64,000 bases of DNA. Origin: a virus. The number at the start of each line of letters is the position of its first letter. The stretch's first letter is position 1. The translations under genes were made by a program, and so were the position numbers. The notes under the pieces are model-generated. The model was not told the origin of the DNA and ran no database searches. It was given only the letters and a program-made list of their open reading frames with translations. The stretch lies in IMG/VR virus record IMGVR_UViG_3300045988_183533; one strand, 5' to 3'. This document shows, piece by piece, positions 12,780-64,000 of this stretch.

Positions 12780-12814
12780 ATTTATATTATACCACATAAA
12801 TATAATGTGGTCAA
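12780..12814 (-). promoter_or_regulatory. B-type sigmaA promoter (TTGACC-N17-TGTGGTATAAT) overlapping palindrome CCACATAAATATAATGTGG
   Basis: -35 at 12809-12814; extended -10 at 12786-12791 with TRTG. Confidence 0.7.
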
Positions 12815-12825
12815 TACAAATTGCG

Positions 12826-12860
12826 AATAAAAAAATGCCCCGCCGAAGCAGGGCATGAAA
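12826..12860 (-). terminator. Rho-independent terminator (ATGCCCTGC-TTCG-GCGGGGCAT, T7)
   Basis: Hairpin plus T-run downstream of the 12874 gene. Confidence 0.65.
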
Positions 12861-12873
12861 AATCAGAAATGTT

Positions 12874-13527
12874 TTAACGAATACCGTATCCCATATCTTG
12901 CCGTACAAGCTTTATCTCCGAGGTGTCCTTTAGACTGTCGGGGAATATCTCCTTGATATAATCCTGATAGCGTTTCGTAACATACTTTACGCCGAGCTCC
13001 TCCGGCTTGATACCTTCAGCCGCTTTTCTGATACGCTGATTCGATGCGCGGGAAGCACATTTCTTGCACAAGCAAAGTGCGACATTAGAGATACCTTCAC
13101 TGCCGCAGACAGCGCATTTTGCATGCACTTTATCTCTGTCCCATTCCTTTATTTCTTTTCCGTTTTCCGGGTCTATCACAAGGCGGTTGCGCTTACAACG
13201 ACGCACGTAAAACACACTTTGGCAACAGGCAACACACAAGCCTAAATCTCTGCGGTAGTGAGAAGAACGTCCATCTGTGACTTCACCGCACAAAAGACAC
13301 TTGTTCTGAGAAACAATGCTCTGGTACTTGAGAACCTTATTCACCAATAACCTTTTTATAAGTTCACCGGTCAAATCGGGTTTCGGAGGATACATGTCCC
13401 ACCCATTTACTGGGAACAAGCTGGTGAAATCGCTCCATTCATCATCGGAAAACGAGCAGCCGACAGGCTTGAGCACCTTTGGAAGCTTGTTGGACCATAC
13501 TTTTTCGGCATTGGATTTCTTCGGCAT
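12874..13527 (-). CDS. Cys-rich zinc-finger protein (about 217 aa)
   Basis: Multiple CxxC pairs (CLLCGE, CVACC, CAVCG, CLCKKC). ATG 13527 with GGAG RBS is preferred over 13584. Confidence 0.5.
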   Translation of the reverse strand: MPKKSNAEKVWSNKLPKVLKPVGCSFSDDEWSDFTSLFPVNGWDMYPPKPDLTGELIKRLLVNKVLKYQSIVSQNKCLLCGEVTDGRSSHYRRDLGLCVACCQSVFYVRRCKRNRLVIDPENGKEIKEWDRDKVHAKCAVCGSEGISNVALCLCKKCASRASNQRIRKAAEGIKPEELGVKYVTKRYQDYIKEIFPDSLKDTSEIKLVRQDMGYGIR

Positions 13528-13558
13528 ACAGATTGCTCCTTTGAGGGGGGTGACAAAA

Positions 13559-14983
13559 TCAATATTCTGCCACGATGTTATCATCGGGTTTTTTCTTTAT
13601 CAAAGAGTCCCCGAATCGATTTACATGTTCTTTCGGCGGTTCAATGACCTCGATATCGACATCCTCCACTTTTTCGATTTCGTCAGAGGATTCATCGCCC
13701 TTTTCGTCCTGAACACTATCCGATGGATTGGTGGTTTGTGCGTCCTCCTTTGCGACATCCGAAAGCAAATCAAATGTCAGCTGAGAATTTGAAGACGCTG
13801 GTTTCTTTTCTCTTTTTTTGGTTGTTTGGCGTTTTTTGGAAGTCCTTTTGGGTTTTACATGTTCACTGGAACCAACCTCACTTACTGCAGAACTTATTGT
13901 GCTTGTATCGGCAACAATGTCCACGGAAGCTGTGCCCTTGTCTGTTTCGGTTATAGGTTCTTGAACTTCTTCGTTTTTCGGTAAATCACCTTTATCAGGT
14001 TGCCTTGCTTTTAAGGCAGAAGGCTTCTGCACGTTCGCTTCCGGTTCTTCTTGCACCACGGCCTCTTCCTTGACTGGAATCTTGGCGGCTCCTTTTTGCA
14101 AAAGGCCATCGATTGCTACAACGGCCTCAGATTTCTTTTCTTCGGACTCCGCCTTCTGTACTGCACAGCGAATCGCCTCGGCTTTTTCTTTCTTTTCTTT
14201 TTCTGCTGATGCGGTATTTTCGCTTTCTTTTATCTCAGCAGGCACATTCATGTCGGATTTCGAGTTCCACCACTTTTCAATAGTAGTAATCGTTCTCTCT
14301 ACTAATATTATACCACAAAATTTGTGGTTTGACAACTTGCGGCTCGGTACGAAGCATACGATGCCACACAGAGAAGTAACCAATAAAACGATAGCAAACC
14401 CCGTGTCAAAGATGAAGCAGATGAACGATACCGGAATCAGCAGTTCGCAAATGCCGCGCATAATAAATGCCGCTTTATCTCCTTGGTCTTTTCGGTTTTG
14501 CATAAAACTGTCTCTCCCCTTCTGTGGGTGATAAGACAAACCACTTAATAAGCCATTTGTTGCCCAATCACAAGGTATCTCGTAGGTCTTTTCTCCTAAG
14601 CAGTCTGTGTACTGAATTACGGTAATATCGAAGTAATCACCATTCTTTTGCGATGCCAAGAATGTCTGTAAGAATTCCTTTCCAACAGACCGAGCAGGAA
14701 CGATGATTGTTTCGATGCCGTCAGAATCTTTTGCAGCGATATCTACCACATAGGTATCATCTTCACCGCGCCATACGTTCTGCACAATACCGCGCACCAA
14801 TATGCCACGCTTATGAACACGCCTCCCCATAAAAGTAAAGGAGTTTTCAGAATACCATGTATTTACCATGCAATACGCAGCAATAATAAGCAATGTAAGG
14901 TACTTAACATTTATGGTGATAATGCTTAAAGAAAAAATATACGGAACGAGCATCAGCAAGATGAATGATACAAAGCTATTCAC
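13559..14983 (-). CDS. Membrane protein (474 aa): N-terminal 2-TM plus beta-rich domain, second TM block, long K/E-rich low-complexity C-terminus
   Basis: GTG start with GAAGGCGGTGA RBS. The N-terminal module is paralogous to that of the 14980..15654 protein. Confidence 0.5.
14305..14336 (-). promoter_or_regulatory. B-type promoter sequence embedded inside the 13559..14983 coding sequence (TTGTCA-N17-TGTGGTATAAT, palindrome CCACAAATTTTGTGG)
   Basis: Perfect extended -10 and -35 sit within codons ...[11 protein letters not shown]... An in-frame ATG (MNVPAEI) lies about 55 nt downstream. Confidence 0.4.
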
Positions 14984-15654
14984 TTTGAATCACCGCCTTC
15001 ACCAAATCCATCCAAAAAGACGAGGTTGTCTTTGGTGTGTTTCTTTTTTTGCTCAACAACTTCTTTTTCGGCTTCTTGTTTGACTTTATTGTACGCTTCC
15101 AACGGACTCATGGAAGGTGCTGATTTTTGCGTATCAGCGGGGACGATAGTATCATCGTTTTTGACGGCTGTCGTTACACGACTGCAGGTTACGAGATTTC
15201 TGTCATTAAACGCAGTTACGCCATCCTCATTTGATTTAAAAATAAAGTCATACATAGCACCAACGAAGAAAGAGTTTTTAACGTTTTTCTTTGATTCGTT
15301 GACGCTGAGGAAAAAATCGTATTTTCCGTTTTTGTCGATAAACTCTCCGTCCTCATTGACAGGGATGATTCGATAGGTTGAAATCTGCTGGCGAATCATA
15401 TTTTTGCTGGACTCATCGGATACAACAATTCCCTTAACAGTCTTATACCGTTCATTTTTTTCATCATTATGAATCTCATAAATTTGAAAAATAAAATAAG
15501 CAGCGCACATCAAGCCGATAAGAAGAATCTTCCACTCCTGCATTACAACAACACCGAAAATAGAAGCAATCAAGAACAGAATAGCGATAAGCCCATTCTT
15601 CACATACATAGATGTGATAAGAGATTTGCAATCCGGATGATAAATCTTAGACAT
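14980..15654 (-). CDS. Membrane protein (about 224 aa), paralog of the N-terminus of the 13559..14983 protein
   Basis: ATG 15654 with GGCGGTGA RBS. 2 TM, then [11 protein letters not shown] motif similar to [16 protein letters not shown] in the neighbouring gene. Confidence 0.5.
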
Positions 15655-15655
15655 T

Positions 15656-16642
15656 TTATTCACCGCCTTCTACGTTAGAATCTTTATCTGCGCTGTTTGT
15701 CGTACTGGCAGACTGTAAAATGCTTGCACCCTGCTCATTCAGAACATCCTCGATTGTCTTGTTGCGTAGTTTGATGCTGGACAAAACGACATCGTAAGAC
15801 CCCCCAGACGAAGTAGTTACCCGTGCGATATATTGAATGGTCGTATCCCCAGCAAGCAATGCGCCGTCTATTGTTTGCTTCTGACGATTTCCATCCTTAT
15901 CTTCGGTTTCAACCACATACATATCCTGTGACGCTTTTTGTGCAGATACAGAAGACGTCATAACAATATCTCCGGCCTTCATATCAGAGGTCGCGAACTT
16001 ATTTACGATGGAACCTGTTCTATCCACAAAGAACACAGGAGTATCCTGCTGCATCTTCCCATCGCCATCTACGAAATGCGAACCGCATAAGGATTCGTAT
16101 TCGTTGACACTCAAAGTCTTATAGCTGAGTTCTGAATCCTCGATGGTATCCCCGGAAGGAATATCCACATTTACGACAGCGACCTTATACTCTCCGGTAA
16201 GCTGTCCACTGATTTGGACCCAATTTGTGTATACGAAGAAGCCAATAGCGATGGCGACAACGGCAACAATGAACATTGCGATACCGATGTTACGCTTGTT
16301 GTTGTTTTTGATGATTTGTGCCTGTTCAAGGATTTCTTTGCTGGCATGCTTAGTATCTTTAAGCGTCTGGTTTGCTTCATCCAGTGTATCGCTTGTCTTT
16401 GTAAGCACTTCGTAAGCTTTGGTTTCTCTATGGCCGACATTCACATTCAGCCCTTTTGCGCCATTGTTATTGGCAGACTTTGCGTTGTTGTATTCGGCGC
16501 GAAGCGTTTCCACAACAGAATCGTCAAGCGTCATCTGTTCCCCGTTAGGCAGAATTACCGTACCATCATCATAGACATCGAAAACACGTTCTTTGCCTTC
16601 ATACATGGCGCGTACCTGACCGATAACATAATGTTCGTTCAT
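15656..16642 (-). CDS. Bitopic membrane protein with possible SAF-like domain (CpaB/FlgA-type fold)
   Basis: ATG 16642 with AAGGGGTG RBS. TM at about residue 140, then YKVAVVNVDIPSGDTIEDSEL...GDIVMTSSVS. Confidence 0.4.
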   Translation of the reverse strand: MNEHYVIGQVRAMYEGKERVFDVYDDGTVILPNGEQMTLDDSVVETLRAEYNNAKSANNNGAKGLNVNVGHRETKAYEVLTKTSDTLDEANQTLKDTKHASKEILEQAQIIKNNNKRNIGIAMFIVAVVAIAIGFFVYTNWVQISGQLTGEYKVAVVNVDIPSGDTIEDSELSYKTLSVNEYESLCGSHFVDGDGKMQQDTPVFFVDRTGSIVNKFATSDMKAGDIVMTSSVSAQKASQDMYVVETEDKDGNRQKQTIDGALLAGDTTIQYIARVTTSSGGSYDVVLSSIKLRNKTIEDVLNEQGASILQSASTTNSADKDSNVEGGE

Positions 16643-16656
16643 GTTTATCACACCCC

Positions 16657-17151
16657 TTATCTCTTGTACTTTTCGAACACCTTGCGCGAAGGAGCTCTCG
16701 GACCGCACATCTTGCACTTTTTACTCTGCTCAACATAATCAATGAGCATCTGACGTTCCCATTCAAGGTATTCGTCCATATTTTTTTCTTTCCATGAATC
16801 GAATTTGCCGTATGAAACACCGAGATAACTGGCGAATATGCTGACAGCATTCAGCATATAATCATTCGGGATTACAACCCTTTTTCCGTCCAGATTGTAA
16901 GCATGTCCCGTAGTGATTTTATTTCTTGTCTGTCCTATCTTCATTCGCCTCGTTTCTGTGTTCTTCTTTACCTGAGTTTCTCTTCTTAGGGTACTGCAGA
17001 ACTTACAATATTGAGTGTTTTTGGCGGTAGAATAAAAAATCCTGCCGCATTCCTTGCATTTGCGCTCGTACGTTATGGTTTTAGGAGTTGTACTTTGTTT
17101 TTGGGTTTCTGTATGGTTGATGTTTTCAGAAGTACAATGATTCCGAGCCAT
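16657..17151 (-). CDS. Basic zinc-ribbon protein (164 aa; CKECG...CKFC; CKMCG)
   Basis: AGAGGT RBS. Confidence 0.5.
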   Translation of the reverse strand: MARNHCTSENINHTETQKQSTTPKTITYERKCKECGRIFYSTAKNTQYCKFCSTLRRETQVKKNTETRRMKIGQTRNKITTGHAYNLDGKRVVIPNDYMLNAVSIFASYLGVSYGKFDSWKEKNMDEYLEWERQMLIDYVEQSKKCKMCGPRAPSRKVFEKYKR

Positions 17152-17167
17152 AATCTGTACCTCTTAT

Positions 17168-18229
17168 TTAAACGCGAGCGTCAATCAGGCAATTAAGCAG
17201 CCCGTTCGCGTCACAGCCAAACAATAAGCATCCGAACACACCAATGGCATGTCCTTTTCTGGTAGAGAATGTTCCTGCCGTAACACCAAGATGCCCGGCA
17301 ATCTGCTCATCTGTCCAGTTGTACTTTTTCCCCTCAATCATTGCAAGGATAACGTCATAATAACGTTGGCCAAGCGGGAACTGTTTCATGATTTCGATAG
17401 CCCCTCGTACGAGTTTTACATACTCCACAATGAGATAGGCATCGCTTCTGTTTTTATCAGAAACTTTGATTTTACTCAAATCTTCGTACGAAGAAGACCC
17501 AAGCAGCTTCATGGCGGGGTCCTTTGACCGTGAGGCACGATACAGAATACGCGTGTATTCCGTAAGGAGCAGCGGAACATTATGATAAAGGCTTGCTTCT
17601 TCTACCCCGTCCACATCACTGCTTGTCATCAGGATTTTATAATATTCCTTGATAACACTACCTGCTGTATTGTAAACGGATTCAATGCACCGCTCGCAAT
17701 ACTTCATGATTTTAATGCGGCCATTCTTCGGAAGAACAGCGGGATTCAGAAAACAGTCAAATACCTCCCGCATGCTGGAACAGTAGTCGACTTCGTACAA
17801 AAGCTCTGACCGCGATTCCTCAATAGCATCGAGAAGCATCTGACAACTTTCGAAGTATTCTTTGCGTTTTCTGAAATGCAAAGACTCTTCCTCAATGTTC
17901 GGAGCCAGCCAGCTCTGGATGCGGCGCAGACGGGAAATGGCTTCGACGTCGCACATCTCATCGTCGTGAACGCTTTCACAGTTCTGCATCATGACATCAA
18001 GGTCTTTCGCCTGCATCATCCATTTGAGTGCCGGATACAATATCATCAGAACAGCCGCTTCTTTCAGTTCCGGCCGCTCTTCCACGACACGATTTACACA
18101 CTTCGTCAGCACATAAGAATTGGGGATGTCTCCGCCAAAGCTTCTACGCAGAACAATGTTGTCATGCATAATGGCATCGAGCAATGCGTAAAGCTGCTGT
18201 TCTTGGGCTTTATTCAATGCTTCGGACAA
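17168..18229 (-). CDS. Putative transcription regulator with C-terminal sigma-70 region-4-like HTH
   Basis: C-terminus WTDEQIAGHLGVTAGTFSTRKGHAIGV resembles sigma-70 region 4.2. TTG start at 18229 with AAAGGAGGG RBS is preferred over the track start at 18274. Confidence 0.5.
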   Translation of the reverse strand: MSEALNKAQEQQLYALLDAIMHDNIVLRRSFGGDIPNSYVLTKCVNRVVEERPELKEAAVLMILYPALKWMMQAKDLDVMMQNCESVHDDEMCDVEAISRLRRIQSWLAPNIEEESLHFRKRKEYFESCQMLLDAIEESRSELLYEVDYCSSMREVFDCFLNPAVLPKNGRIKIMKYCERCIESVYNTAGSVIKEYYKILMTSSDVDGVEEASLYHNVPLLLTEYTRILYRASRSKDPAMKLLGSSSYEDLSKIKVSDKNRSDAYLIVEYVKLVRGAIEIMKQFPLGQRYYDVILAMIEGKKYNWTDEQIAGHLGVTAGTFSTRKGHAIGVFGCLLFGCDANGLLNCLIDARV

Positions 18230-18669
18230 TTTGTCTTCCCTCCTTTCGCAAGATTCGTTTCGATGTAAATGCACGTGTTGTCATGTACGGTTTCGGATAA
18301 AAGGCCACTGTAATAGAACATGACCTTGTATTTCTTTGCGGTACAGGCATATTTGAGCCGCGCCCAAAGGTCTTTGTTATGGCTGGGCTCAGTGTCTCCG
18401 TCCTCTACCCCAAAAGAGGCACCGGTGCGTGCAATCACACTATCACTGCTGAATACTGCGATTTGAGACCCTGTCGGCAATCCGATATTCTCAATAATGC
18501 GACAAAGCTCTGCCAATTTCAGCCTCGTATAACCAATCGGAGCGGCCATAAAGTAAGTATCCTTCTGCCTATCCGACTTGGCGGAAGGATTTACGACAAA
18601 ACTGTGGACGCACACCTCACCGTTCAACTCCGGCGTTTTGACGATATCAAGATAGATAATAGCGGCCAT
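18214..18669 (-). CDS. Hypothetical protein (151 aa)
   Basis: ATG 18669 with GGGGGAG RBS. Confidence 0.5.
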   Translation of the reverse strand: MAAIIYLDIVKTPELNGEVCVHSFVVNPSAKSDRQKDTYFMAAPIGYTRLKLAELCRIIENIGLPTGSQIAVFSSDSVIARTGASFGVEDGDTEPSHNKDLWARLKYACTAKKYKVMFYYSGLLSETVHDNTCIYIETNLAKGGKTNCPKH

Positions 18670-18703
18670 AAACTGCTCCCCCTAACGTACAGTAATTGAC
18701 TTT

Positions 18704-18740
18704 TTCGCGTTTTTGTGGTATTATATAAGTGCAGTAAAGG
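18704..18740 (+). promoter_or_regulatory. Plus-strand sigmaA promoter (TTGACT-N17-TGTGGTATTAT) in a divergent control region; IR ATTACCGG-N18-CCGGTAAT lies downstream at 18766-18799
   Basis: Its -10 overlaps face-to-face with a minus-strand TATAAT at 18729-18734. Confidence 0.55.
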
Positions 18741-18823
18741 TATAATTTATATTACCGGTTACAAAGATTGTTGCTCCCGGTAATTGTATGAACTTGTCTA
18801 TCAAACCAAACAGGAGGGGAATT

Positions 18824-19486
18824 ATGAGTAATAACATCAATGAGAACTCCAAGCCAGTAGAGAACATCTTCGACGCTTTCTCAATGGGGAGCAAGATGAA
18901 TACCGCTTCAAAACAAGAACGAGCCAAAATTGTGGCTGCATTTATGGAACAGGCAAAATCTTGCTTTGTTGACACGGAGAATACCGTGAAATATCTGAAC
19001 GTCCTGATGGAAAGAACGAGACTCCGCTACGGGTTTTCCGCTGATGAGTTCGCGGCAATGCTGGGATTCAGTAGCACTGCTGCCTACAACAAGACATTCA
19101 TGCAACCCAATGCGAACTTTGGAACTGTGTTATTCCCCTATGTGGTTCAGTTTTGCTATCTGTTTGGCTATAATCTGTCAATTCCGGATTCCGTATCTAC
19201 TCCGCAGACGGTAGCAGACCTGTACTCTTTGGAACTGGCCTCTTTTCTGATTTCTCTTGGCCCTGATGCAATGGATGATATTTCAAGAACATTGGTCGGT
19301 GCCGAATACCTTGACCCGAATTTAAGAAAACTGAGTTCTCAAATCCTTTCAAAGGCAAAGAAATACTTCTATGGTAACAATGGTGAAGCGCTACCTAATG
19401 AAATCCAGTATCGCAACAGATTAGATAACGCCGAAAGTAGGATTGAGCGTCTCGAGAAAGTAGAGAAGGCCAATCTTGATAAATGA
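18824..19486 (+). CDS. Putative HTH regulator (XRE-like helix-turn-helix near residues 75-110)
   Basis: ATG 18824 with AGGAGGGG RBS; RLRYGFSADEFAAMLGFSSTAAYNK HTH-like segment. One of only two plus-strand genes. Confidence 0.5.
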   Translation: MSNNINENSKPVENIFDAFSMGSKMNTASKQERAKIVAAFMEQAKSCFVDTENTVKYLNVLMERTRLRYGFSADEFAAMLGFSSTAAYNKTFMQPNANFGTVLFPYVVQFCYLFGYNLSIPDSVSTPQTVADLYSLELASFLISLGPDAMDDISRTLVGAEYLDPNLRKLSSQILSKAKKYFYGNNGEALPNEIQYRNRLDNAESRIERLEKVEKANLDK

Positions 19487-19951: not shown

Positions 19952-19984
19952 TCGGTACTCACCACGCTTTCACAATCAGTGTTT

Positions 19985-20944: not shown

Positions 20945-21061
20945 AAAAAATCCTCCGAACGAGTCGCAATATAGTTGAAAGTACGAATTTTGGGATACTC
21001 TGCGTGATAAAATATAAGTGTCTACCAGATAACAATGGGACTCACTGACTGATGCATAGCG

Positions 21062-21162
21062 GTTGTTAAAACGGAAAGAACAACTAATATACAACTGCCT
21101 GTTGTTATCATGATACCACATATGCAGTTGTCCGGCAACGAACTTTTGTTCGCGTAGACAAC
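21062..21162. promoter_or_regulatory. Cluster of GTTGT...ACAAC inverted repeats (candidate parC centromere or XRE operator) between parM and the divergent XRE gene
   Basis: GTTGTTaaaacggaaagaACAAC; ACAACtgcctGTTGT; GTTGTCcggcaacgaacttttgttcgcgtaGACAAC. Confidence 0.45.
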
Positions 21163-21181
21163 AAAAAGAAAGGAGTTATTT

Positions 21182-24421: not shown

Positions 24422-24445
24422 GTTATCAACTCCTTCACCGGCAGT

Positions 24446-24727: not shown

Positions 24728-24811
24728 GATTTAACCCTCACTCTAAATACGGCAAAAAGGCCATGCGCTCTATTTCCTATAAGAAATGGCGGTATGGCCT
24801 GTTTGCCTCGC

Positions 24812-25330: not shown

Positions 25331-25359
25331 GGCAATCTTCCCCTTACGATTGATGATGT

Positions 25360-25998: not shown

Positions 25999-26017
25999 GG
26001 TCTACCACCGTTTCTGC

Positions 26018-26737
26018 TTATCCTGCGATGCTGCTTTCAGCAACCTCGAATGGCTTTACATCAACAAGCCTTACAGAAACAATGGTAGCAAGCAGGTCTT
26101 TGGTGCTATTGAAGATGATGTTCTTCTTCTCGCCAAAGGTATCATAGAACTGAGCAGAGCAGCGATTCGGATTGTCATCGGTATCCAGCATTTTGAATCC
26201 GCTCTCTCCTCTGCACAGCATCGTGGTAATATAACTACCCATATTGCAGAAGAAATCGGTTGTAGTGAACCGGAATACCGGAGGCGTTTTCTTACGGATG
26301 GTGATGTACCGCTCGTAAAGTTCTCCGTTGATTTCCGTAACCATCAGAAGTTCAAAGGTACAGACGAACTGCCCTGCTGTCGGTGCCGGAATTCCGTGTG
26401 TAGGCGTTCCCTTGTGCTGTGCTGCACTCTCCGCCTCGTACATGATTCCGTACTGCGTAACATTGACGGTGCCGAGGTTGTCAATCTTCTTGACAGTCTG
26501 ATGCTTGACGAGATAGCCATCGTACATAAGACGGTCAATGATTCTCTCGCCCTTGGCTTTCAGATTGTCGCCCTCAATCGTTGAAACGACTTCGTCAGAA
26601 CCCTCGTACTGATAGCCAACGACACGACCAAAACATGCAGGCGCATCGTTTTCACTTTCTACTTTCAGGGACATAACTGACCCGAAAGGGCAATACTCCG
26701 GAATTCTTTTCTTTGCTACATAACGTTTTTCTACCAT
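26018..26737 (-). CDS. Hypothetical protein (239 aa)
   Basis: GGGGGA RBS. Lies downstream of two tandem B-type promoters (26786-26814 and 26900-26931). Confidence 0.5.
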   Translation of the reverse strand: MVEKRYVAKKRIPEYCPFGSVMSLKVESENDAPACFGRVVGYQYEGSDEVVSTIEGDNLKAKGERIIDRLMYDGYLVKHQTVKKIDNLGTVNVTQYGIMYEAESAAQHKGTPTHGIPAPTAGQFVCTFELLMVTEINGELYERYITIRKKTPPVFRFTTTDFFCNMGSYITTMLCRGESGFKMLDTDDNPNRCSAQFYDTFGEKKNIIFNSTKDLLATIVSVRLVDVKPFEVAESSIAG

Positions 26738-26899
26738 TGAATCTGTCCCCCGTGTTTGCTTGTTGATTCGTATGATATTGCCTATTTATTCTAATATAGT
26801 CAACATCAAAAAACTGCGTAAAAAATCGCACAGATGTTCTTCTGCGCTGTTCCACCATAGAAATATCACCGATATTCCCTGTTCATCTTGAACATATCT

Positions 26900-30740: not shown

Positions 30741-30776
30741 CAAAAAAGATAGCCACCCATTTCTGAGCGGCTATCT
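30741..30776 (-). terminator. Rho-independent terminator (GATAGCC...GGCTATC, T6)
   Basis: Lies downstream of the lipoprotein gene ending at 30926. Confidence 0.5.
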
Positions 30777-31582: not shown

Positions 31583-31651
31583 CATGAGTAACTTCTCCTT
31601 TTTCATGTGTGTTTGTTTGACGTGCATAAACAAGCTTCATGCACTATGCTT

Positions 31652-31683: not shown

Positions 31684-31761
31684 AAAGAATAGCGCCCCAC
31701 AGATTTACCTGTGGAGCGCTATATGTTATCTCTTACGCGGAGTAGAGATTATTTCAGTTGG

Positions 31762-61100: not shown

Positions 61101-62101
61101 GAAGTTGCTCCCTCAATAGCTTCCCATCCATTGGCCGTAAGAGTATCCTGACTCTCCTCACTTTGTTCGGTTTCTGCCGACTGCACAGCGACATCATTTG
61201 TCGTGCTCTCGGTAAAAACAAATTCATTGTTTTCATTCAGCGTTGCGGAAGCATGTTCGTTACCCTTGTCAGCAGAAATAACGATATTGCCGTCCACGTT
61301 TGCTGCGGTGATTTCGAATCCTTCCAGCGCATAGTTGCGGGTATTGAATTCGATGTTAATGTTGCTGGCGTCTGCTCCGATTGCAGCCATTGCATCGGCA
61401 ACTGCACGATATAACTCGATACCGGACCAAGTAGCATCCGGATTGTCTGCCAATGTTTCGGCAGGAGTTTTATCATCGTTCAGATAACCGTATGTAGTAG
61501 GCTCTGCATCGCTGTAATCGTACTCCATCACATCCATATCGTAATCGGTATCCTGAGGCTCAATGAACCTCTTGTACCACTGATAGTGGAGATTGACGTC
61601 ATTACGATTTACGTGAGCATTGAAAGTGACTTCATCGCCAATTTCGGCCTCGACTTGACCTTCGGTCGCATCATCAGCCAAACTGACAGCCACAAAATCA
61701 CTTTCATCAACGTCAGGAGTTTCCGTTGCTTCCGGAACTTCTGTAGGCTCAGGCGTAGCCGTCGCATCAGGAGTTTCGGTGGGTTCCGGAGTGGATGTTG
61801 GAACCTCGGTGGGCTCCGGAGTCGCCTCCGGTTCTGAGGAATCCGTTTCATCAGGCATTTCTGTGGGGACGGGTGTCCCTACAGGTTCGGTAATCTCTTC
61901 TTCAGACGAAGAAGAGCTGGCAGAGTCTAACGCTTCAACAGTCTCAGTAGAAGTGCTTTCGGATACGGCATCCGTAACAAGACTACTGTCAGTCGTGATG
62001 GGTTCTGCTGCATAAGCGATTGTGGAGCTAAATGTAGACATCGTCATCATGACTGCCAAAACTGCTGAAGCGACACGCTGCCATGTTTTGCCTTTTTGCA
62101 T
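40130..62101 (-). CDS. Giant cell-wall-anchored surface protein (7323 aa): signal peptide, T/P/E-rich linker, glycine-rich insert, MBG-type repeats, about 25 DUF11/Ig-like beta-sandwich repeats joined by PGTNPEDPENPGHGKDP linkers, C-terminal sorting signal SNKKTGIGFA plus TM plus KRKK
   Basis: Single uninterrupted 21,972-nt ORF with AAAGGAGAACGCT RBS and B-type promoter 62199-62230. Tandem DNA repeats of about 1.1 kb. Confidence 0.85.
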   Translation of the reverse strand: MQKGKTWQRVASAVLAVMMTMSTFSSTIAYAAEPITTDSSLVTDAVSESTSTETVEALDSASSSSSEEEITEPVGTPVPTEMPDETDSSEPEATPEPTEVPTSTPEPTETPDATATPEPTEVPEATETPDVDESDFVAVSLADDATEGQVEAEIGDEVTFNAHVNRNDVNLHYQWYKRFIEPQDTDYDMDVMEYDYSDAEPTTYGYLNDDKTPAETLADNPDATWSGIELYRAVADAMAAIGADASNINIEFNTRNYALEGFEITAANVDGNIVISADKGNEHASATLNENNEFVFTESTTNDVAVQSAETEQSEESQDTLTANGWEAIEGATSDTYTHTIDEYDAYTTYRCVITIDDDNYIAAAKEELIANGADENKLTDDTLDNTITTEITVSIPSMEKSEDEMYNDLSVEDKLKQRLALSGIATYAAGVQLDSQTNPQWVTGLSAGMEYLTADMYAKIYGQDGKSGWLANGEITGQQADRMWSYIGGNFNGNANANELDSEGKPTGGTRKYKSFALTDGNKLEINSEWYGKTVYFRYHNSNIVGNTATGAAVSIPASGRGTSYKDAVQVLFCYTKEEDGRTFPLTIKEYVNQAMTNGYSQNGMAHITLNTVSCNDFNVDPDRYLKDAEGNYRVDSVYWGTCYFSEPDLSGKAYYALKNYIGNGYGFGIGHDTMYAYAGAWFDAHGGGRGYPNNIYDERKIDPNDTATRYYQVNSWEVSGGHWNMNALMGENNSNTLVGSGYYSASDEAYFGWIVDPLTVPSAIMSSGGSHGPFLKTTIYGSESLRIRSNGGFTYEEAMVNPDIKHRTPTNWPYKFSVGQTVPAALTHSNGQVAFDDIWVQYNGCASDFTNAGLGKLYEPTVDGRSGTNNFYLAGSGNFVMNQIGHLPLDDGGGHINRASPQEMQLCVNTLMWISQRKQCEVCAADQADQQMTHFVHRVNAANAKKILTALANGGSYWYPLSDCYELMEDLDLTKLGFDSTTWKPIKNFTGHWNSKYFDVKVPKNGALFDNTTGDLGAYRTGDGNDWNLGTDRLKGWDTVFKDSGNSSPSVRTTGIARIYGKLSDAKLFNDGQVHEGYTVHIRYEDNTALLQEGDDFSCVVNNVDQYCISNLPCIYVGGKTILRARVYDKAGNEVTKYGPIVAKVPPHFWNDCETVPLELLTIEATPIENYRYWEGETTKVLEGSGIIYNQPISNESVTWYYRVVDLRNTNNALSDWVKIGHYGQFTTEDGAVTGIIKTPVFHDGNDGVYNYPHSSVDVQLQMLAYTGNAIQLRTDYEVEGKTYSTIDPGVITPEASGIIQIEERPMSMTQAPNQRVMTQDEATFVFETDYWKGLDDKGYSYDVQYKDPHDDDWQTLATSVTFGGTYTLNTVDNSQVNKVDIEAHTVDTLAKGKETASMIHDNKWLPADFWRPDGFTDQQCAQKHTTITLTLHAADYNWSGYYFRIVASYRFNEKRTKVENSYSAIGDADNAGFDTSRYGLLQVDAPFVSATMLEARALMMQEHNSEGDATGDFGQNYWSVETTQDQVDNWNASRGGSNNPLISDKNVAVYTTTITFSPGKLTESGNRILTPVLQWGFQDDLNSESTDYKPVIAPININGYANGGNGLTTENYKDWANIVKTRYDINTDDSSVMKQVVDAIETEHSGSPFGKFTAYITIDDIRPVEDTMLNGQPFDINSAYAKWSITTSLHIESATNPMDFGTEHFYFQCKPYLEYIRGYNSTKLKSQTITNTLAHNFDYVNGGIDEDNTDTGAELWLDYNISIHANERNLVSCGVDKHSIFMYPELTIEAPNGLRYIMSRYQIVNEFPYGKHRDTSRTVFSQSDHLSVNLNTPYQGQMTTVTRYDMNGNPSQIDVQGKTMAELGISLDERGYLDKNNEDYAPYLDHGYALWSDYSYPKEIWQWFWRNAIQYHCYDMEEFDGTNEQVFFYIDEKNVRAADKSFKANDGNNPTSSWTAPFDATYQIDLWGAGGGNASMTDGISGNSGSHTIITADIKEGTTLYFVAGGAGGGGSGGGSGGGSTGSGSGGSGGYNGGGSGGVGAVFYDCYKGGGDPDHSYHSNSPIGFGGGGGATTVAFGLIGDGQLKNYGDGSSMFGVAGGGSGAAIISGNGYTTRGVGGSGSNNSGQRYHCALKEDKVFSDGYEYHHGDICGWTYSGTHSSDIKMQREDEEGYNNTLHENGGGSGWQSASTDGALRGSSYAASVGENLDNGNIIIKANVTGADQLNDGAGSGIGQAGRAKIKVVDLNKRLYRRVGKNAMDIGFEDANECTPTRAKVMLTVANKMYDGNQLTVAAHVVWDGDTDAGIDEQEILRGVNITYSNNESPNITYPTNATTDSKKKPLVRTGSYTATATYTGKYEVTFCWENTKPGKTYVVRGESTTPDEYVSGNGNVVYFDIYPRPLHLYSYDNNKIYDNISTAKVSDIKIKAATADSGIVHGDTVALNSTLAYGYYCENYAPEDFAKTSFRESIHTGLHSIKTVTILELINNPFDNYYIASEDFTGTINPRPLYVHSQYHDVNKYKWNYDGNSNDIGNGKYLTDTTVYDNQNVTIEQAYEMILAGKQENIDITRYTKTEQDNYQNTVVNPNNIKVYDSYYNANIGEEGQGNIYIDNITNYDSVELNAQTYVGSYADSNAGEQLTGYDANGDNGVIKEDRYNGLSMNTIRHLPYSVKYSYSTTTPQVGQKMTVTIAVTNKDTGYGLAAQNNYVAPVAIQNLRLKSRFAGNGPITLKSTNGIRMNQQGTEFYIDTIPVGGTVNIVFEYTVQDIDDTNALVRDIEQNNEMYLVNNNYNDYYIADKTFSGGIYRTTLRAQVKSVSTTYGHGFKNIKLPYADDVYYWNKGSDSWLTMEGLVEDHKTASSDDEKLDLKAKKTNNYQSKFVYNVVPSETTDAGSYPVSYIGLNEFNYDVLKNYVVTEDPGSIEVKPRKIMISVDESQKIYGTTNPFFNSTFKVLGTDDQGNELDVSDENNWTVLGDDATVDYNNMHLIGNDTIGNVVEVVNGASRTALAFKNGTSNLPYLTTATQSSDVIYQTDVPEEECAYCLEKYNEMHKGHEHYHDGDHPHTHVPVNGYPVSVNENTGYGNTLGIKTVTNSEGQVVSNYELVYESNVLKVHPRLIRIAALDATKAYGGTEPALKWTVDGEIIKPTSEMFGIKAVRDSGENVRDEGYTIRISYEKSTASNYIVETNDAKMTITPVPLTIVFGNQERYYGEDNKNDYTLTVVGLKHGDTADVALKNNDGATAKVLETAKNVLSDYINLTYNKYTDVGSNYLYGDKSYCEEHTILVPRENADGGYNYTIANYTPGVLTIKPRPMLLEVTGWQKELGDADKVQDFTLTDMITHNSVNGQQKLGAGSRITDASVVVNPDKVPIVFNLVRAEGEEVGSYPVYSTPQDRQIGNLAANDQKQLELDNPNYDFEYRYANDLIVKRQGLMITVDDKVRYYGDRVNRFYDGSSDYTYHVFKVENGEAVEITAEEAGLNTSTFTFTHLDTQTSSSGTYKNCISLSGVHSTIYDDDDITITAGNLTIIPRPVSVIAADNTKVYGDADPELKYTLHDGVRGEDGNYYIEYANGPVLTEKEGADVPVQPGDLEGTGVTREPGEDVWTGEHSFGKAYAINANDISPVSKDGITNYVITMENGNFTITPAELVVTVKGGYSKTYGEENPAFDADITGFKRDDTKETVLNGELGFATLCFDLSDAGKYIVTAGNNNEDAVNPDCVVLEDGEEHIGSTFEVKSNTNFEKNYVIRYVNGDITVNPKELIVRIDHKVKTYGTADPAFTFHYEDNAGNVIGLIDPENSPLNVELYRTKGENVVRGDVTAADSLNKWGTTLYDGDYLISAKYDTNNKNYTVTVYDGSLKIVPATLTVTVDGGYKTTYGDEIPEFTYSITGFVGRDVKDETGTGIKDDESKVSGTATMYCNDNAGNPVTNKTKVGNYPINYDRQQLVADNSNYKFIYVGGDLTIGKKPIHVKADDQQKVYGEKDPDPLTWTITDPEELVNPGDKDFFDITTKRPGADTDDGEQVGKYPITIDGTDPSGNYEIITTPGTLTIVPATIVVTVIDDEKYFGEDNPKPNVTITGYKRGDTIDDIGGKDALKTKTDAEKWSPVGEYPVSAKDSTFHNPNYDFVYIDGKLTVKPLIINIKAEDDRKTYGDNDPDKFNVSYTLTNEKDEPYTPDKDLRDYIDRALNLDAARVPGENVRTENPGYSIVPTYTEVDNIEIGTVTPGHFFIDPREVTITANSAEKVYDGTPLTEPGYTYAPELVDNDLLGIHDKMDSVTVTGSQTEVGSSKNVPSDAVIINTEDGSGSNANYIIKYVDGTLTVRDKEIVSIEKSADRERATDYDVIRYTITVTNATSHDLHNVIVKDTNNFVGVPVLSQANGVTYDAEKGEFVIAEISHLRDETHTNAVTFTYTYTVDPTDHGTNNNDILENNAKITDMKVVESYTENPDGSTTPNYTEPNKEWLVETPDVDVEIIRQNLTIEKSADKTEAGVGDVVTYTLKVTNTGNTKLENVVVKDTNNFMGEPVENTKLHFGYRVNDDGTWTITSLGIGKSVTITYKYTVVADDLTNGKLDNIATATIPARKDPTIPEKPVDSNEVIVPLYYKHLTIVKSADRDHAYPGEVVKYQVTVTNDGTVDMTNVTVSDNTNALGMFIVSTGDGYTYNPETRLFTIPALNVGDSVTLNYLYIVQNGDPETIINVATAHAPKNPNTEIPGDKDIEEPSKPVEVDVLRDELTIVKNADKSFVDMNGNDTTVTYTLTVKNSGNTKLTNVIVTDTSNGNGTVEYTGDLMYDGNGKWMIPELNAGDSVEITYVYTAVAEDMNLDNGNIVNTAVAEGKNPDNKTVTSDPDTETVHVGEVPDRDIRVVKASLESSVMIGDTIHYTITVTNNGTMTAQNVVVRDFNDGIGEINAASSDKYTYDAATHSFTIAEIAAGEVVEIPVTYTVQEGDKGTVNNAAVEIPEVPKIEKKADKQTVVVGEVVTYTITVTNTTNETKTNVEVKDTNNFTSVITPAENTDVVSYIGDKVWNISSIGAGESVDIVYTYTVMNEDAPNTMLVNNAEMTYVTDSGKVKIPSNEVDIPIIPETPTPEHVGPTVVKQADKAIANIGDTVHYTVVMHNNDTVDYVNAALYDKNNFNGVITNVKNGTLESASAGSAVIKVGTIPAGKTVTVEYDYIVLNTDAGKGQDTYNELKNVATLHYWFADEDQTPENEKTKPSNEVTVKVPGSDVPVPVNPPEGKLKVEKFVDKKSASVGDMLHYTVKVSNVGDGELKNILVEDFFDGHGKLNYIPAVGVVVNGDGTYTINKLPAGTFMELRFTYVIVEGDEPEVLNTAVVTTPPVDPPLEPTKTADKKFAFVDEIVTYTISVYNPDTKAKTNVTVKDTNNFVGSINATNTDKYTYNGDNTWTIPEIGAGETIDITYTYTVQSNDEKLLENKADVTYSENGDTVKLDTPTVDVVVPDKGTVSIHKEADKKMAKPGEVVTYNVTVTNNKGFDVHDVVVTDANNFAGKITGVDGADYTFENGEFHIAEIAAGASVTLTYTYTVEIGDVPTQILENIATADVPGTNPEDPNNPGHGKDPNKPIDNDEKIPSNPVDVEVPGSETETKIPDLVLTKSVDKNEAVVGDTLNYTITVKNNGKGDAENVTVKDFFDGKGTLNFVAMDGVTDNGDNTYTIASVKAGESVTLNFTYVVVDGDAPEVLNAAVITTPEPPTDIVKSADKHIAKVNEIVTYTITVKNNSKDTLTNLLVSDTNNFKGEIEAKDGKGYTYNGDKTWTIATLESGKSIDITYTYTMQASDETVIENTADVRYSHNGTDYDIPSNPVDVEKPNDGVVTIFKTADKTKAEPNEVVTYTVTIHNGKDYDIKNVRLTDANNFAGKIEGVDGAGYKFINGEFVIDKIPAGGDAVVHYTYTVQISDVPTKILENVATAHVPGKNPGDPDEEIPSNKVDVEVPGDGTHVDVPEGKLEIVKSVDKTEAKVGDTLNYTITLTNVGGQAVKNAVVKDFFDGNGVLNFVPMDGVTDNGDYTYTVANVEKGQSITLRFTYTVVAGDAPMVLNAAVVKDPTPPVDIEKTADKHVAMVDEVVNYTITVKNTTDKAVTDLLVSDTNNFTGAIASKDNAKYTYNGNHTWTIPSIKAGESIDILYTYTVKTTDPSTLVNEADVRYTTDDGEYVIKADPVEVVVPKDGEVTIVKSGDKKIAEPGEVVTYTVTIHNGKAHDITNVVVSDSNNFAGTITGSNGVGYKFVDGHFVIDKIAAGADAVLTYTYTVQIADVPTHILENVATAHVPGTNPEDPENPGHGKDPDKPIDPDTDIPSNKVEVEVPGSEVETEIPEISITKSVDKPTAKIGDTLNYTVTVKNGGNADAENILIKDFFDGNGTLNFKAMDGVTDNGDNTYTISTVKAGESVKLRFSYVVVEGDEPLVLNAAVIKDPTPPIDVEKEADKHIAKVDEVVTYTISVKSTTSEPVDNVTVTDTNNFKGEIKAENADKYTYNGNKTWTIPTIAAGETIHITYTYTMQAEDATVIENIANVTYSKDGTDYNIPSNPVDVEKPDDGVVTIRKAADKTKAEPGEVVTYTVTVHNGKNHDIENARLTDTNNFAGEIVSVDGADYTFENGEFTINKIPAGGDVVIHYTYTVEIADVPTQILENIATIHVPGTNPEDPNNPGHGKDPEKPIDPDTEIPSNKVDVEVPGSETETEIPVIEITKSVDKAEAKVGDTLNYTVTVANKGKADAENVVVEDFFDGNGTLNFVPMDGVADNGDNSYTISTVKAGESVTLNFTYVVVTADAPKVLNAAVVKDPTPPIDVEKDADKYIAKVTDVVTYTITVKNTTDETVNDITVADHNNFAGDVTAESSNRYTYNGDGTWTIGYLDAGEALDIVYTYTVETTDESVMENTAAIKYTHDGEQYNIPSNTVDVKKPDDGVVTIWKSANKTVAKPGETVTYTVTVHNGKNHDIQNAALTDENNFSGSIFAVDGAGYHYENGVFTIDTIPAGGDVVVHYAYTVGIADVTTHILENVATIHVPGTNPEDPENPGQGKDPTKPIDPDTDIPSNKVDVEVPGSGTETDIPLEKSLTIVKSADKTKVNVGETINYRVVVTNTGEVDLVNVTVKDNNDGASHIEAKNGDGYTYDSATTTFTIARIPVGESFTLTYSYVAVDADAGHDVINVAVAKAPGQNPEDPENPGHGKDPSKPIDEDVEKPSNEVKVPVVKPSTPTTPDEPKPTPTPDNPKPTPTPVPTEKPKTPPIGWLDIFKVDGKPFSLFSIFTSNKKTGIGFAQSIVGLAAMVGIGVAALVVVNHKRKKDENDNKDNHKDDSAE
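40500..46100 (-). repeat. About five tandem copies of an approximately 1.1-kb intragenic DNA repeat, each encoding about 370 aa (three DUF11-like domains plus linker)
   Basis: Repeat landmarks at 40937, 42036, 43150, 44262 and 45318 (ggaat..tccgtatcggggtcaat..gg..tctttaccgtgacccgg...) at 80-90% identity. Confidence 0.7.
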
Positions 62102-62198
62102 AGCGTTCTCCTTTCAAAATATTGCCAAGTTATACCTTTACGCAATCTTGTTCACATATCTGCACATATATTTGCAAAATTGCATAATCAGCACACTT

Positions 62199-62230
62199 GG
62201 CGGTATCTATATTATGCCACATTTGGGCGC
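62199..62230 (-). promoter_or_regulatory. B-type promoter for the 7323-aa gene (TTGACT-N17-TGTGGCATAAT)
   Basis: -10 at 62201-62206, -35 at 62224-62229. Confidence 0.6.
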
Positions 62231-62252
62231 AATAGTCAATCAAAATTGCAAG

Positions 62253-62288
62253 AAAATAAAAGAAAAAGTCCGTCTAAAAAAGACGGAC
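62253..62288 (-). terminator. Rho-independent terminator (GTCCGTCT-T6-AGACGGAC, long T-run)
   Basis: Ends transcripts coming from the lipoprotein gene or mini-array region before the giant-gene promoter. Confidence 0.6.
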
Positions 62289-62331
62289 CTGAAAACTGAA
62301 GTATCTGTTATAGTGTATTTGCCATTGCTGT

Positions 62332-62432
62332 ATTTCAATCTAACGCAACCAATGCGGGTTGCAACGGTCTCAGCACTCAGACCATCAGGCACAACACCAT
62401 TTCAATCTAACGCAACCCATGCGGGTTGCAAC
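62332..62432 (-). CRISPR. Mini-CRISPR array: two 34-nt repeats (GTTGCAACCCGCATGGGTTGCGTTAGATTGAAAT on the minus strand; the distal copy has one mismatch) and one 33-nt spacer; type I-C-like repeat architecture
   Basis: Repeats at 62399-62432 and 62332-62365; spacer 62366-62398. The repeat has a 7-bp palindrome GCAACCC/GGGTTGC and the ATTGAAAT 3' end typical of I-C repeats. The degenerate copy is at the leader-distal end. Confidence 0.5.
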
Positions 62433-62622
62433 AGCAAACTTGTACAAACGAAGCAATAAGTTGTCATGCATTCTGTACAATGTTTGTCTGTTTTTTGACC
62501 AAACAATATGGTCAGATACTACTTACTGCAATGGAATCATATCCTTTCTTTATATAATACTTGGTGCGAAGAAGCCAGCCGCAAAAGCGATGCATTATCA
62601 CCTTCTTACTTTCTTTAATTTT

Positions 62623-63876
62623 TTAGTTATCGATATCATAAGAATTTTCCTCACTCCCACAAGATTTATCCTGCGTCCAGTCAGTTCCGGACCACTGTCC
62701 GAAGTCCTTATAACGATTATCGTAATCTTCTGTACTACCCGGTACAATATCCCCACCGCTCGGCTGCTGCTGTGCCTGCTGCTGTGCCTGCTGCTGTGCC
62801 TGCTGGGCTGCCTGCTGCTGAGCCTGCTGGGCAGCGGCCTGTGCGGCTGCCTGAGCAGCAGCCTGCTTCTGCGCAGCGGCCTTCTGGTCAGCTGCCTTTA
62901 CCGGGCAGTTGCTGCTGGTGTGACCGGTCTGGCCACAGTAGCTGCAGGTGACTGCCTTTACCGTAAGCTCGTAAGTGGAGCTTACATCCCCATCAGAATT
63001 GACTGCCATAATGGTCACATTCCCAGTGTCCTTGGCGGTCACATTGCCTTCCGCATCTACAGTAGCAATGGACTCATCGCTGCTCTTCCAAGTAACGGCC
63101 TTGTCCGTAGCATCCTCCGGGAACACGGTTGCTTTGATGGTGTGCGTGTTGCCAACGGTCAGAACGCCTTCATTGGAATCCAGCGTAATGGACTCGATTG
63201 CCTTACCGACGGTGACCTTGGTCTCGGCCTTAGCGTTTTCGGGAACGACCAGCATCTCGCTGTCCACACCGGCGTCCTCTGCCGTAGCAGTGGTGTCTGC
63301 CACGATGGTAGTGGTGATGGTGCATTCGCCAACGCCTACTGCGGTGACATTACCGGACTCATCCACGGTCGCTACCGACTCATCGCTGCTCAAGTAAGCA
63401 AGCTTGACATCGGTGGCGTCCTCGGGAGTCATCTTAGCACCCAGCGCCTTGGTAGCCTCACCGTTGAGTTCCAGACTCAGAGTTTCGGGGGCTTCTACTC
63501 CGGTGGGGAGAATCACGACCTTGATATGGGTCGTGGAAGAAATATTGGCATCTGCAACAGATACTGTGATATCAGCCTCACCGGCACCGACTGCAGTGAC
63601 CAGACCAGTTTCATCAACCGTGGCAACCTCTTCGTCGGAGGAGGACCAGGTGAGATTCAGTTTGGATGCTGCCTCGGCAATCTTTTCCTGCTCGGCCTTG
63701 TCGTCGGTACCATACTCGATATTGAGCTGCTGGGTCTCACCCTTTTCCAGCACAATGTCGGTGGGCAGCCCCACTGAGGTGATATCGACGCCGCAGCCAA
63801 CCAGACTGACGGCCATCGCGACTGCCATAATCAGGCACGCGATACGGGTAAATACCTTAACGGACATAGTCTTCAT
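62623..63876 (-). CDS. Lipoprotein with three Big_2 (bacterial Ig-like group 2) domains, CCHC zinc-knuckle-like motif and Q/A-rich C-terminus
   Basis: Start MKTMSVK at 63876 with AAAAGGAGAA RBS; lipobox LVGC. Repeated ATVDE-GLVTAVG-GEADITV Big_2 signatures; CSYCGQTGHTSSNC. Confidence 0.7.
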   Translation of the reverse strand: MKTMSVKVFTRIACLIMAVAMAVSLVGCGVDITSVGLPTDIVLEKGETQQLNIEYGTDDKAEQEKIAEAASKLNLTWSSSDEEVATVDETGLVTAVGAGEADITVSVADANISSTTHIKVVILPTGVEAPETLSLELNGEATKALGAKMTPEDATDVKLAYLSSDESVATVDESGNVTAVGVGECTITTTIVADTTATAEDAGVDSEMLVVPENAKAETKVTVGKAIESITLDSNEGVLTVGNTHTIKATVFPEDATDKAVTWKSSDESIATVDAEGNVTAKDTGNVTIMAVNSDGDVSSTYELTVKAVTCSYCGQTGHTSSNCPVKAADQKAAAQKQAAAQAAAQAAAQQAQQQAAQQAQQQAQQQAQQQPSGGDIVPGSTEDYDNRYKDFGQWSGTDWTQDKSCGSEENSYDIDN

Positions 63877-63983
63877 AGAGTTTCTCCTTTTTATGTAAAT
63901 TGTATTTTTGGTTTCGAACATCTTTTGCCATGCGCGAACCTCCTTTATGTTTATGGAGGGCCTATCTCTTACCCTCTGTCTAT

Positions 63984-64000
63984 ATTATACCACATTTATA
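63984..64000 (-). promoter_or_regulatory. Partial B-type promoter (TGTGGTATAAT extended -10; -35 lies beyond the window end)
   Basis: Identical 14-mer ATGTGGTATAATATA as in the other B-type copies. Confidence 0.45.

Follow-up and report, generated by a model that had tools for sequence, protein, structure and literature searches.

A uniform family of sigma-A-type promoters on a Hodor-type megaplasmid of the human gut

The subject of this report is a recurrent promoter-like motif in a 64,000-nucleotide (nt) stretch of DNA, IMG/VR record IMGVR_UViG_3300045988_183533, which is referred to throughout as the window. The stretch belongs to a Hodor-type megaplasmid, and the motif takes the form R-TTGACY-N12-TGTGGTATAAT-ATAARTA, with 11 promoter-like units in the window and its right flank. 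These sites are probably standard, near-perfect sigma-A housekeeping promoters of the megaplasmid that are read by the host polymerase, as judged from the sequence of their boxes. The copies are special on the plasmid in their uniformity and number. The family is real and well defined. Its best reading is as an optimised, host-independent sigma-A promoter, kept up by selection and spread in part by duplication. By itself, the motif reveals no new regulatory mechanism; it is a known kind of signal.

Motif, copy number and fit to the sigma-A consensus

The Gram-positive sigma-A consensus consists of a -35 box TTGAC, a 17-bp spacing, a TRTG element at -16 and a -10 box TATAAT. Promoters with such a TRTG “-16 region”, or extended -10, are said to have been described by Graves and Rabinowitz in 1986, by Helmann in 1995 and by Voskuil and Chambliss in 1998. 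A generic sigma-70 scan placed exactly the sites of the present family at its top ranks, with 10–11 of the 12 hexamer positions matched, a 17-bp spacer and an upstream TG; the -35 box of the window sites matches at five of six positions. The spacing, TTGACY-N12-TGTGG, corresponds to 17 bp between the hexamers and holds at every window site that the scan reported (P1–P6 and P11 in the list below), the remaining catalogued sites having been chosen or aligned at this spacing. The boxes, spacing and TRTG element fit the original prediction of strong sigma-A-type promoters, and the predicted strength and activity appear likely from these sequence features.

All 11 units in the window and right flank lie upstream of, and are co-oriented with, the downstream gene. 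The 15-mer ATGTGGTATAATATA has four exact copies, all on the minus strand (12783-97, 26899-913, 30698-712 and 63981-95), where none would be expected. Within the window, the 14-mer TGTGGTATAATATA has five exact copies and nine at up to one mismatch (0.01 expected), and TGTGGTATAAT gives 10 matches at up to one mismatch against 0.84 expected. The original prediction had spoken of nine copies of an identical 14-mer; the number holds when one mismatch is allowed, but the copies are not identical, and the string that it quoted is the 15-mer with its four exact copies.

Across the replicon, 27 distinct Hodor promoters were catalogued, at least 16 of them beyond the window and flank. It had been suggested that the motif be sought in the rest of the replicon, and the strict pattern described below indeed has 13 copies in a 346-kb IMG/VR version of the plasmid (approximately 38 per Mb), eight of these outside the window region. 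The copies outside the window are followed by a ribosome-binding site and a start codon. The -35 box reads TTGAC in 25 of the 27 promoters, with the other two (TTGTCA and TTGATT) each one base off; its sixth base is T in 17, C in nine and A in one, and the base preceding it is A or G in 26. The -10 box is a perfect TATAAT in 24, and TGTG is matched, base by base, in 25, 26, 26 and 27 promoters. Following the -10 box, the bases A-T-A-A are found in 26, 26, 25 and 24 of the 27. The claim that conservation goes beyond the generic sigma-A consensus was borne out, with G at -13 in 27/27, ATA in 25–26/27 at each position and C or T as the sixth -35 base in 26/27. In a comparison set of unrelated viral TTGAC-N13-TGTGNTATAAT promoters, G stands at -13 with a frequency of approximately 0.30–0.36, ATA follows the -10 box with one of 0.08–0.16, and A is the sixth -35 base in 0.8, figures that are slightly low-biased, as loci from the first scan were excluded.

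The motif is also found far from Hodor plasmids. The pattern TTGAC-N13-TGTGGTATAATATA has at least 132 matches in at least 120 IMG/VR stretches, on contigs with no nucleotide relation to Hodor. Among the matches listed, protein-level similarity to the window is seen only in L022 and L093, in both cases limited to 62.3-64.0 kb, and the free positions are promoter-like, with TTGACA in 70% and an A-tract upstream. A looser pattern, TTGAY-N13-TRTGGTATAATAGG, was too unspecific to use. The strict 34-nt pattern TTGACY-N10-WW-TGTGGTATAATATARA occurs as single copies in unrelated metagenome contigs of 26–51% GC, where it precedes tRNA genes, ligA (NAD-ligase), rtcB, hsdR and a hybrid histidine kinase gene. 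Since the same pattern precedes such ordinary genes in unrelated contigs, no Hodor-specific factor is needed, and the earlier suggestion of a dedicated recognition factor is not supported.

The following mechanism may be proposed. The host RNA polymerase holoenzyme would recognise the promoters unaided, sigma-A presumably being sufficient. The discriminator ATAARTA, composed of A/T only, would set an A start approximately 7 nt downstream; by analogy with the established sensing of the initiating nucleoside triphosphate (iNTP) in Bacillus, an all-A/T discriminator would be expected to fix a start with ATP. Where hairpins were checked, the promoters follow immediately on the terminator of the unit before them, which would cut the plasmid into insulated units. 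Among these would be the units of the Sec/trigger-factor module, the two giant surface proteins, flotillin, the lipoproteins and DnaE. The uniformity of the sites would result from purifying selection on every polymerase contact, together with some spread of copies within the plasmid lineage.

The individual sites and the elements beside them are as follows.

P1, 12779..12815, minus strand: ATTGACC-N12-TGTGGTATAATATAAATA; putative promoter of an operon for a 171-amino-acid (aa) protein, a zinc-finger protein, SecY, SecG and SecE, together with a protein resembling trigger factor.
12835..12856, minus strand: terminator hairpin with T-run immediately upstream of P1, forming a terminator-promoter junction.
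P2, 14300..14336, minus strand: GTTGTCA-N12-TGTGGTATAATATT; putative internal promoter in the coding sequence (CDS) 13559-14983, the motif itself being coding sequence.
P11, 18695..18731, plus strand: ATTGACT-N12-TGTGGTATTATATAAGT, with the motif core at 18696-18727; putative promoter of gene 18788-19486, absent from the list of the original prediction.
21110..21138, minus strand: weak variant TTGCCG-N17-TATCAT after ATGTGG, upstream of the Alp7A/ParM-like gene and beside a divergent HTH_3 gene; likewise missed earlier.
P3, 26895..26931, minus strand: GTTGACT-N12-TGTGGTATAATATAGATA; upstream of the gene starting at 26737.
26815..26894, minus strand: structured RNA of approximately 80 nt downstream of P3, with three hairpins, the last of them terminator-like (26828-26847).
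26775..26803, minus strand: TTGACT-N17-CAATAT before gene 26737, not a member of the family.
P4, 28812..28848, minus strand: ATTGATT-N12-TGTGGTATAATATAATAT; putative promoter of a 76-aa gene and the flotillin gene.
P5, 30694..30730, minus strand: GTTGACC-N12-TGTGGTATAATATAAAAA; putative promoter of a 183-aa membrane protein gene, with a preceding terminator at 30747-30776.
P6, 31647..31683, minus strand: GTTGACT-N12-GGTGGTATAATATAAGCA; putative promoter of the lipoprotein gene that follows the 2669-aa gene, with a preceding terminator at 31689-31722.
P7, 39846..39882, minus strand: ATTGACT-N12-TGTGGCATATTGTAAATA; degenerate member before the gene for the 2669-aa MBG-domain protein.
P8, 62204..62240, minus strand: ATTGACT-N12-TGTGGCATAATATAGATA; putative promoter of the 7323-aa protein gene.
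P9, 63977..64000, minus strand: TGTGGTATAATATAGACA; putative promoter of a Big_2 lipoprotein gene, the -35 box GTTGACT lying just past the window end.
67580, plus strand: right-flank copy immediately before the DnaE gene, seen by extending the window through L146 (100% identical, same contig).

Sites had been named upstream of the genes at 12738, 26737, 28780, 30678, 31582/31633, 39771, 62101 and 63876, and inside CDS 13559-14983; all of them were found. The site before 39771 is present but degenerate (TGTGGCATATTGTA), and the supposed two tandem promoters before 26737 are in fact one, as the second site lacks the motif and is set apart from the first by the terminator-like hairpin at 26828-26847. 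The promoter class is real at the places named, with several details of the earlier description overstated. The scan for promoters and hairpins reported terminator hairpins directly upstream of P1, P5 and P6, and similar hairpins with T-runs are visible in the sequence before P3, P4 and P8. This placement directly after terminators suggests insulated, strongly and probably constitutively expressed units. The giant adhesin genes and the Sec operon share the class, as had been proposed in support of their co-regulation, but the sharing is trivial, as most of the units seen use it, including those of DnaE, flotillin, lipoproteins and unknown proteins.

Selection, ancestry and the case for a dedicated factor

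Comparison of 8–13 strain variants per promoter, at 93–100% identity, showed variation in two of 170 box columns versus 14 of 120 spacer columns (p = 1.3e-4). The two columns that vary within the boxes correspond to the T and the R of TRTG; in one strain, for example, P9 has TATGG, which is still within TRTG. The boxes of P1 are unchanged across 13 strain variants, and at P4 the spacer varies while the boxes do not. The P6 orthologue of the other Hodor group, which follows a gene of approximately 2650 aa, has the same boxes and a different spacer and discriminator. At the P8 site, another Hodor variant (L603) carries a perfect TGTGGTATAAT. In the other Hodor group (L355, SecY 90%) and a distant relative (L358, 59%), the promoters read ATTGACT-N12-T(G/A)TGGTATAATA. 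This retention of boxes while spacers change, across both strains and lineages, is a signature of selection.

P2 extends the comparison to a site within a gene. Its core is invariant among strain variants whose flanks differ by approximately 11%, and both its position and its reading frame are kept in the L358 homologue (59% SecY identity), where TGT GGT ATA ATA encodes Cys-Gly-Ile-Ile. P2 could yield a separate transcript for the 3′ half of the gene and the genes downstream. In the 474/585-aa membrane protein genes concerned (window 13559-14983; L358 6116-7873), the full promoter stands at the junction of the membrane domain and the low-complexity tail.

The 160-nt region of P3 is 100% identical in 13/13 variants that differ by 4–7% elsewhere. 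The RNA downstream of P3 has a minimum free energy of -24.3 kcal/mol (z = -3.5) and is possibly a small RNA, or else a leader subject to regulation; a search of the window against Rfam returned no family.

The likeness of the copies could also reflect a dispersed repeat, that is, one cassette recently copied around the plasmid, in which case ancestry rather than selection would account for most of it. Similar spacers are over-represented among the 27 promoters, with 23 pairs differing at no more than four of 12 positions against 12.3 expected (p ~0.001). Near-twins are found in P10 and L014a, which differ at 1/12 spacer bases, and in P7 and L327b, which differ at 2/12; three promoters of the other Hodor group have TTGACTAAGTG... 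spacers in common. The excess of similar pairs and the near-twins P10/L014a indicate that some copies arose by duplication, and the proposal of promoter-cassette duplication stands to this extent. However, most spacers, and all flanks, are unrelated among the 27 promoters, orthologous promoters keep their boxes and change their spacers, and the internal P2 has been held in place over deep divergence. Recent copying as the principal source of the likeness is quite improbable.

It had also been proposed that two of the promoters are embedded in perfect palindromes that could serve as operators. The relevant features are the following.

12791..12811, minus strand: interrupted inverted repeat in P1, ACCACAT-N7-ATGTGGT, with a 7-nt centre that is not self-complementary.
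14312..14328, minus strand: perfect 17-nt palindrome in P2, ACCACAAATTTTGTGGT.

The palindrome quoted as CCACAAATTTTGTGG is indeed perfect and extends to 17 nt (14312-14328), but in CCACATAAATATAATGTGG only the 7-bp arms pair. CCACA/TGTGG inverted repeats are present in 3/27 promoters, with spacings of 2, 5 and 9 nt, and these differing spacings make the geometry unfit for one dimeric operator. The corresponding promoters of relatives do not share them: CCACA is missing from the promoter that the other Hodor group has at its Sec operon, and the L358 internal promoter homologous to P2 lacks the palindrome. A role of the palindromes as operators is not supported by this distribution; most likely they came about incidentally, when CCACA appeared in the spacer across from the invariant TGTGG. 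The same repeats bear on the idea that the motif is a non-promoter DNA site, one that acts in partition, in replication, or as single-strand promoters or hairpins in conjugative entry. Hodor elements are conjugative and possess several partition systems (PMC12934698), and inverted repeats do exist in three promoters. The repeats are, however, short, rare and not conserved, and every copy in the window and flank has the position and orientation of a promoter, with canonical -35/-10 spacing. A function of this kind is extremely improbable.

A further possibility is a plasmid-wide regulon, in which a Hodor protein (sigma-like, an activator, or a repressor of the KorA/KorB or omega type) reads TGTGGTATAATATAARTA and co-evolves with a lineage-specific discriminator. 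This is unlikely. The uniformity above that of generic promoters would suit such a regulon, as would a discriminator consensus that depends on the lineage while the core is common to all. A candidate reader is the conserved 353-aa, all-helical protein at 17168-18229, which has a C-terminal helix-turn-helix (HTH)-like segment and is syntenic in the distant relative. The original prediction described it as sigma-region-4-like, for which no support was obtained. Its four homologue clusters all lie in Hodor-like contigs, and searches of Pfam, PHROG and PDB gave no family or sequence match. The AlphaFold model, built on a 5-sequence alignment, is of low confidence (predicted local distance difference test score, pLDDT, 60.8), and Foldseek found no match for it at E <= 1e-3. 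Sigma-28 is among the non-significant fold matches (E ~2), which would suit the regulon but at this E value is not evidence. Against the regulon, unrelated contigs have the identical 34-nt pattern at ordinary genes, the boxes match those of host sigma-A exactly, and the promoters have no operator-like repeat in common. Additionally, a tblastn search with RpoD regions 2 and 4 detected no sigma-70-like gene in approximately 476 kb of redundant Hodor-family DNA, which covers part of the replicon; its one weak match was an HD-domain open reading frame. It is similarly doubtful that TGTGGTATAAT with the lineage discriminator (ATAARTA, or AGGKGTAT in the sister group) forms the site of a Hodor transcription factor or sigma-modifying factor. 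If this were true, dozens of units, including those of the giant surface proteins, a private Sec translocon and DnaE, would be joined in one regulon across Bacillota hosts.

A 241-aa HD-domain protein, recognised by eye as (p)ppGpp-hydrolase-like from its HD...LHDTVEDT motif, is encoded at L327 502-1227. It may matter if promoters with an A start respond to nucleotide pools.

Several observations weigh against the reading of the sites as plain host sigma-A promoters. The strict pattern has 46 matches in all of IMG/VR, 34 of them on Hodor contigs, and among the matches listed for metagenome contigs 107/140 are catalogued Hodor promoters; the enrichment is to some extent circular, Hodor being the source of the pattern. 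The Hodor copies also depart systematically from generic promoters: their sixth -35 base is Y rather than A, the -35 box is preceded by A/G rather than C, and the discriminator is fixed. That discriminator differs by lineage, being ATAARTA here, AGGKGTAT in the other group and AAYG in the distant relative, as seen in small samples of 4 and approximately 8 promoters from the relatives, and one shared host polymerase does not obviously explain such a pattern. A plasmid-encoded HTH or sigma-like protein is possible. Furthermore, GTDB representative genomes yielded no host: a SecY pattern gave 48 matches, none of them a relative of the element, and a repeat resembling those of clustered regularly interspaced short palindromic repeats (CRISPR) gave 0 matches.

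The megaplasmid and neighbouring elements

The window is part of ENA contig ERZ28658752 scaffold_7 (339,630 bp), with an offset of window position + 142,833, as established by exact-protein look-ups. Near-identical contigs of 320-350 kb are present in very many human-gut assemblies. The gene content includes the SecY-SecG-SecE-trigger-factor-like operon, an Alp7A/ParM-like gene, Dam, flotillin, DnaE and type I-C-like CRISPR repeats, and MBG-domain proteins of 2669 aa and 7323 aa are encoded. Hodor conjugative megaplasmids were described by Yuan et al. (2026, bioRxiv; PMC12934698) as elements of >300 kb with giant proteins of approximately 7300 aa and 2640 aa. The present replicon is a Hodor-type conjugative megaplasmid of approximately 340 kb from the human gut with a Bacillota host, since its size, the SecY-SecG-SecE-trigger factor module, the 7323-aa and 2669-aa proteins and the type I-C repeats agree with that preprint. 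The ParM/Alp-like partition gene and the MBG domains of the giant proteins are likewise held in common with the published elements.

The preprint places the host in the Bacillota, and its metatranscriptome data show transcription of the Sec-module and giant-protein operons as such (PMC12934698). Its text makes no mention of promoters, sigma factors or intergenic regions, so the promoter family is not described there. The authors remark that Hodors are misclassified in viral databases (PMC12934698), which agrees with the filing of the plasmid in IMG/VR as viral genomes (IMGVR_UViG_3300023499_000220, _3300029615_000411 and others). A huge phage had been considered on account of the DnaE, dCMP deaminase, HNH and Dam genes and the IMG/VR listing, and was rejected upon the match to the Hodor preprint. 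Megablast of 22 kb of the window gave no match in PLSDB or INPHARED. The best matches of DnaE to cultured phages have 30-36% identity, and as a host clue they are no narrower than Clostridia.

An IS200/IS605 element (Y1 transposase and TnpB) is located at L146 1-464, approximately 9.4-9.9 kb past the right end of the window. The insertion is in the window's own contig; at the corresponding site, five other strains lack it. Should identical copies turn up elsewhere in that sample, they could hint at the host; a search of the fragment against plasmids gave no match. SecY proteins of the plasmid type fall into identity tiers of 90%, ~71-74%, 66%, 59% and 55%, and the loci fetched at 90%, 59% and 55% (L488 among them) are large mobile elements with giant surface proteins, sortase and bactofilin alongside. 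The nearest chromosomal SecY, labelled Gemmiger, has 49% identity. A private Sec module appears to be a wider mobile-element trait.

Two kinds of small element were also noted. A mini CRISPR-like array on the minus strand at window 62330-62571 consists of two 34-nt repeats, GTTGCAACCCGCATGGGTTGCGTTAGATTGAAAT, around one 33-nt spacer. The repeat has a type I-C-like hairpin with a ATTGAAAT tail, and the array is preceded by a conserved leader approximately 100 nt long. Leader-plus-array modules with 2-3 repeats are present elsewhere on the plasmid (L326, L341, L346, L322, L264 and two in L093), and their repeat stems show compensatory changes. The Hodor preprint refers to the repeat array only as “an apparently degraded repeat array” (PMC12934698). 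The 346-kb IMG/VR variant has an inserted copy of the mini-array (L335 3476-3781) immediately downstream of P6 (window 31615-31629); this copy shares 94% identity with window 62399-62555, and in that strain a promoter of the P6 class may drive it. The second element, at window 784-900 on the minus strand, is intergenic and resembles a small-RNA gene, with TTGCAA-N17-TATACT followed by approximately 75 nt and a strong terminator, ACCGCTATCTCGTAAGAGGTGGCGGTATTTTTT. Copies with 86-90% identity occur in Hodor contigs L326 (two) and L322 and in the other IMG/VR contigs L020 and L325.

For a newly described and very prevalent group of gut megaplasmids whose genes are mostly unannotated, the motif provides a simple map of transcription units. 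The sites are likely to be strong, host-independent Bacillota promoters, which would suit the proposed movement of the plasmid between Clostridia and Bacilli; they are also candidate parts for the engineering of gut Firmicutes. The density of the motif in candidate chromosomes could also help in finding the host.

Comparison with known promoter families

Generic Gram-positive sigma-A promoters have TTGAC, the 17-bp spacing, TRTG next to the -10 box, TATAAT and an A/T-rich downstream region in common with the Hodor sites; the Gemmiger-like S10 operon promoter, TTGCAA-N12-TGTGCTATTAT, is one example. Positions left free in these are fixed in the Hodor promoters (G at -13, ATAARTA, Y as the sixth -35 base, R ahead of the -35 box), and dozens of near-identical copies reside on one replicon. 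With boxes that are those of sigma-A, they do not resemble promoters of an alternative sigma factor or a phage RNA polymerase. They do constitute, with 27 members, a mobile-element promoter family of stricter-than-generic consensus.

The KorA/KorB regulon of RK2 and the omega regulon of inc18 plasmids have a defined operator at each promoter, either a palindrome or heptad repeats. As in these systems, many strong plasmid promoters have a common sequence and co-control is conceivable; in contrast, the Hodor promoters have no common operator, with inverted repeats in 3/27 only. The early promoters of T4 are reportedly a large family, described by Wilkens and Rueger, that is used by the unmodified host holoenzyme and has a consensus longer and stricter than that of the host. 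They differ from the Hodor promoters in host phylum and in sequence, the T4 -35 box being GTTTAC-like.

Early transcription in phage SPO1 uses host sigma-A. In the SPO1 host-takeover module (FJ230960 1-14000), 11-12 early promoters follow an extended consensus peculiar to them, AAAAGTn-TTGACT-ttnnCTACnAGG-YGTGn-(A/C/T)ATAAT, and one site at 5751 reads TTGACT-N12-TGTGGCATAAT. The two families are alike in having many closely spaced copies on a mobile element, TTGACT rather than TTGACA, a (T/C)GTG element at -16 and a stricter-than-generic consensus. In SPO1 the spacer ttnnCTACnAGG and the upstream AAAAGT are kept and the -10 box is imperfect (AATAAT/CATAAT), whereas in the Hodor promoters the spacers vary, TATAAT is perfect and the discriminator is conserved. 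SPO1 is, moreover, a lytic phage with a temporal programme. Hodor is a conjugative plasmid, and its promoters do not form a phage early temporal class, as they stand before structural, secretion and replication genes alike. As an analogy, the SPO1 host-takeover module is the closest of the systems tested.

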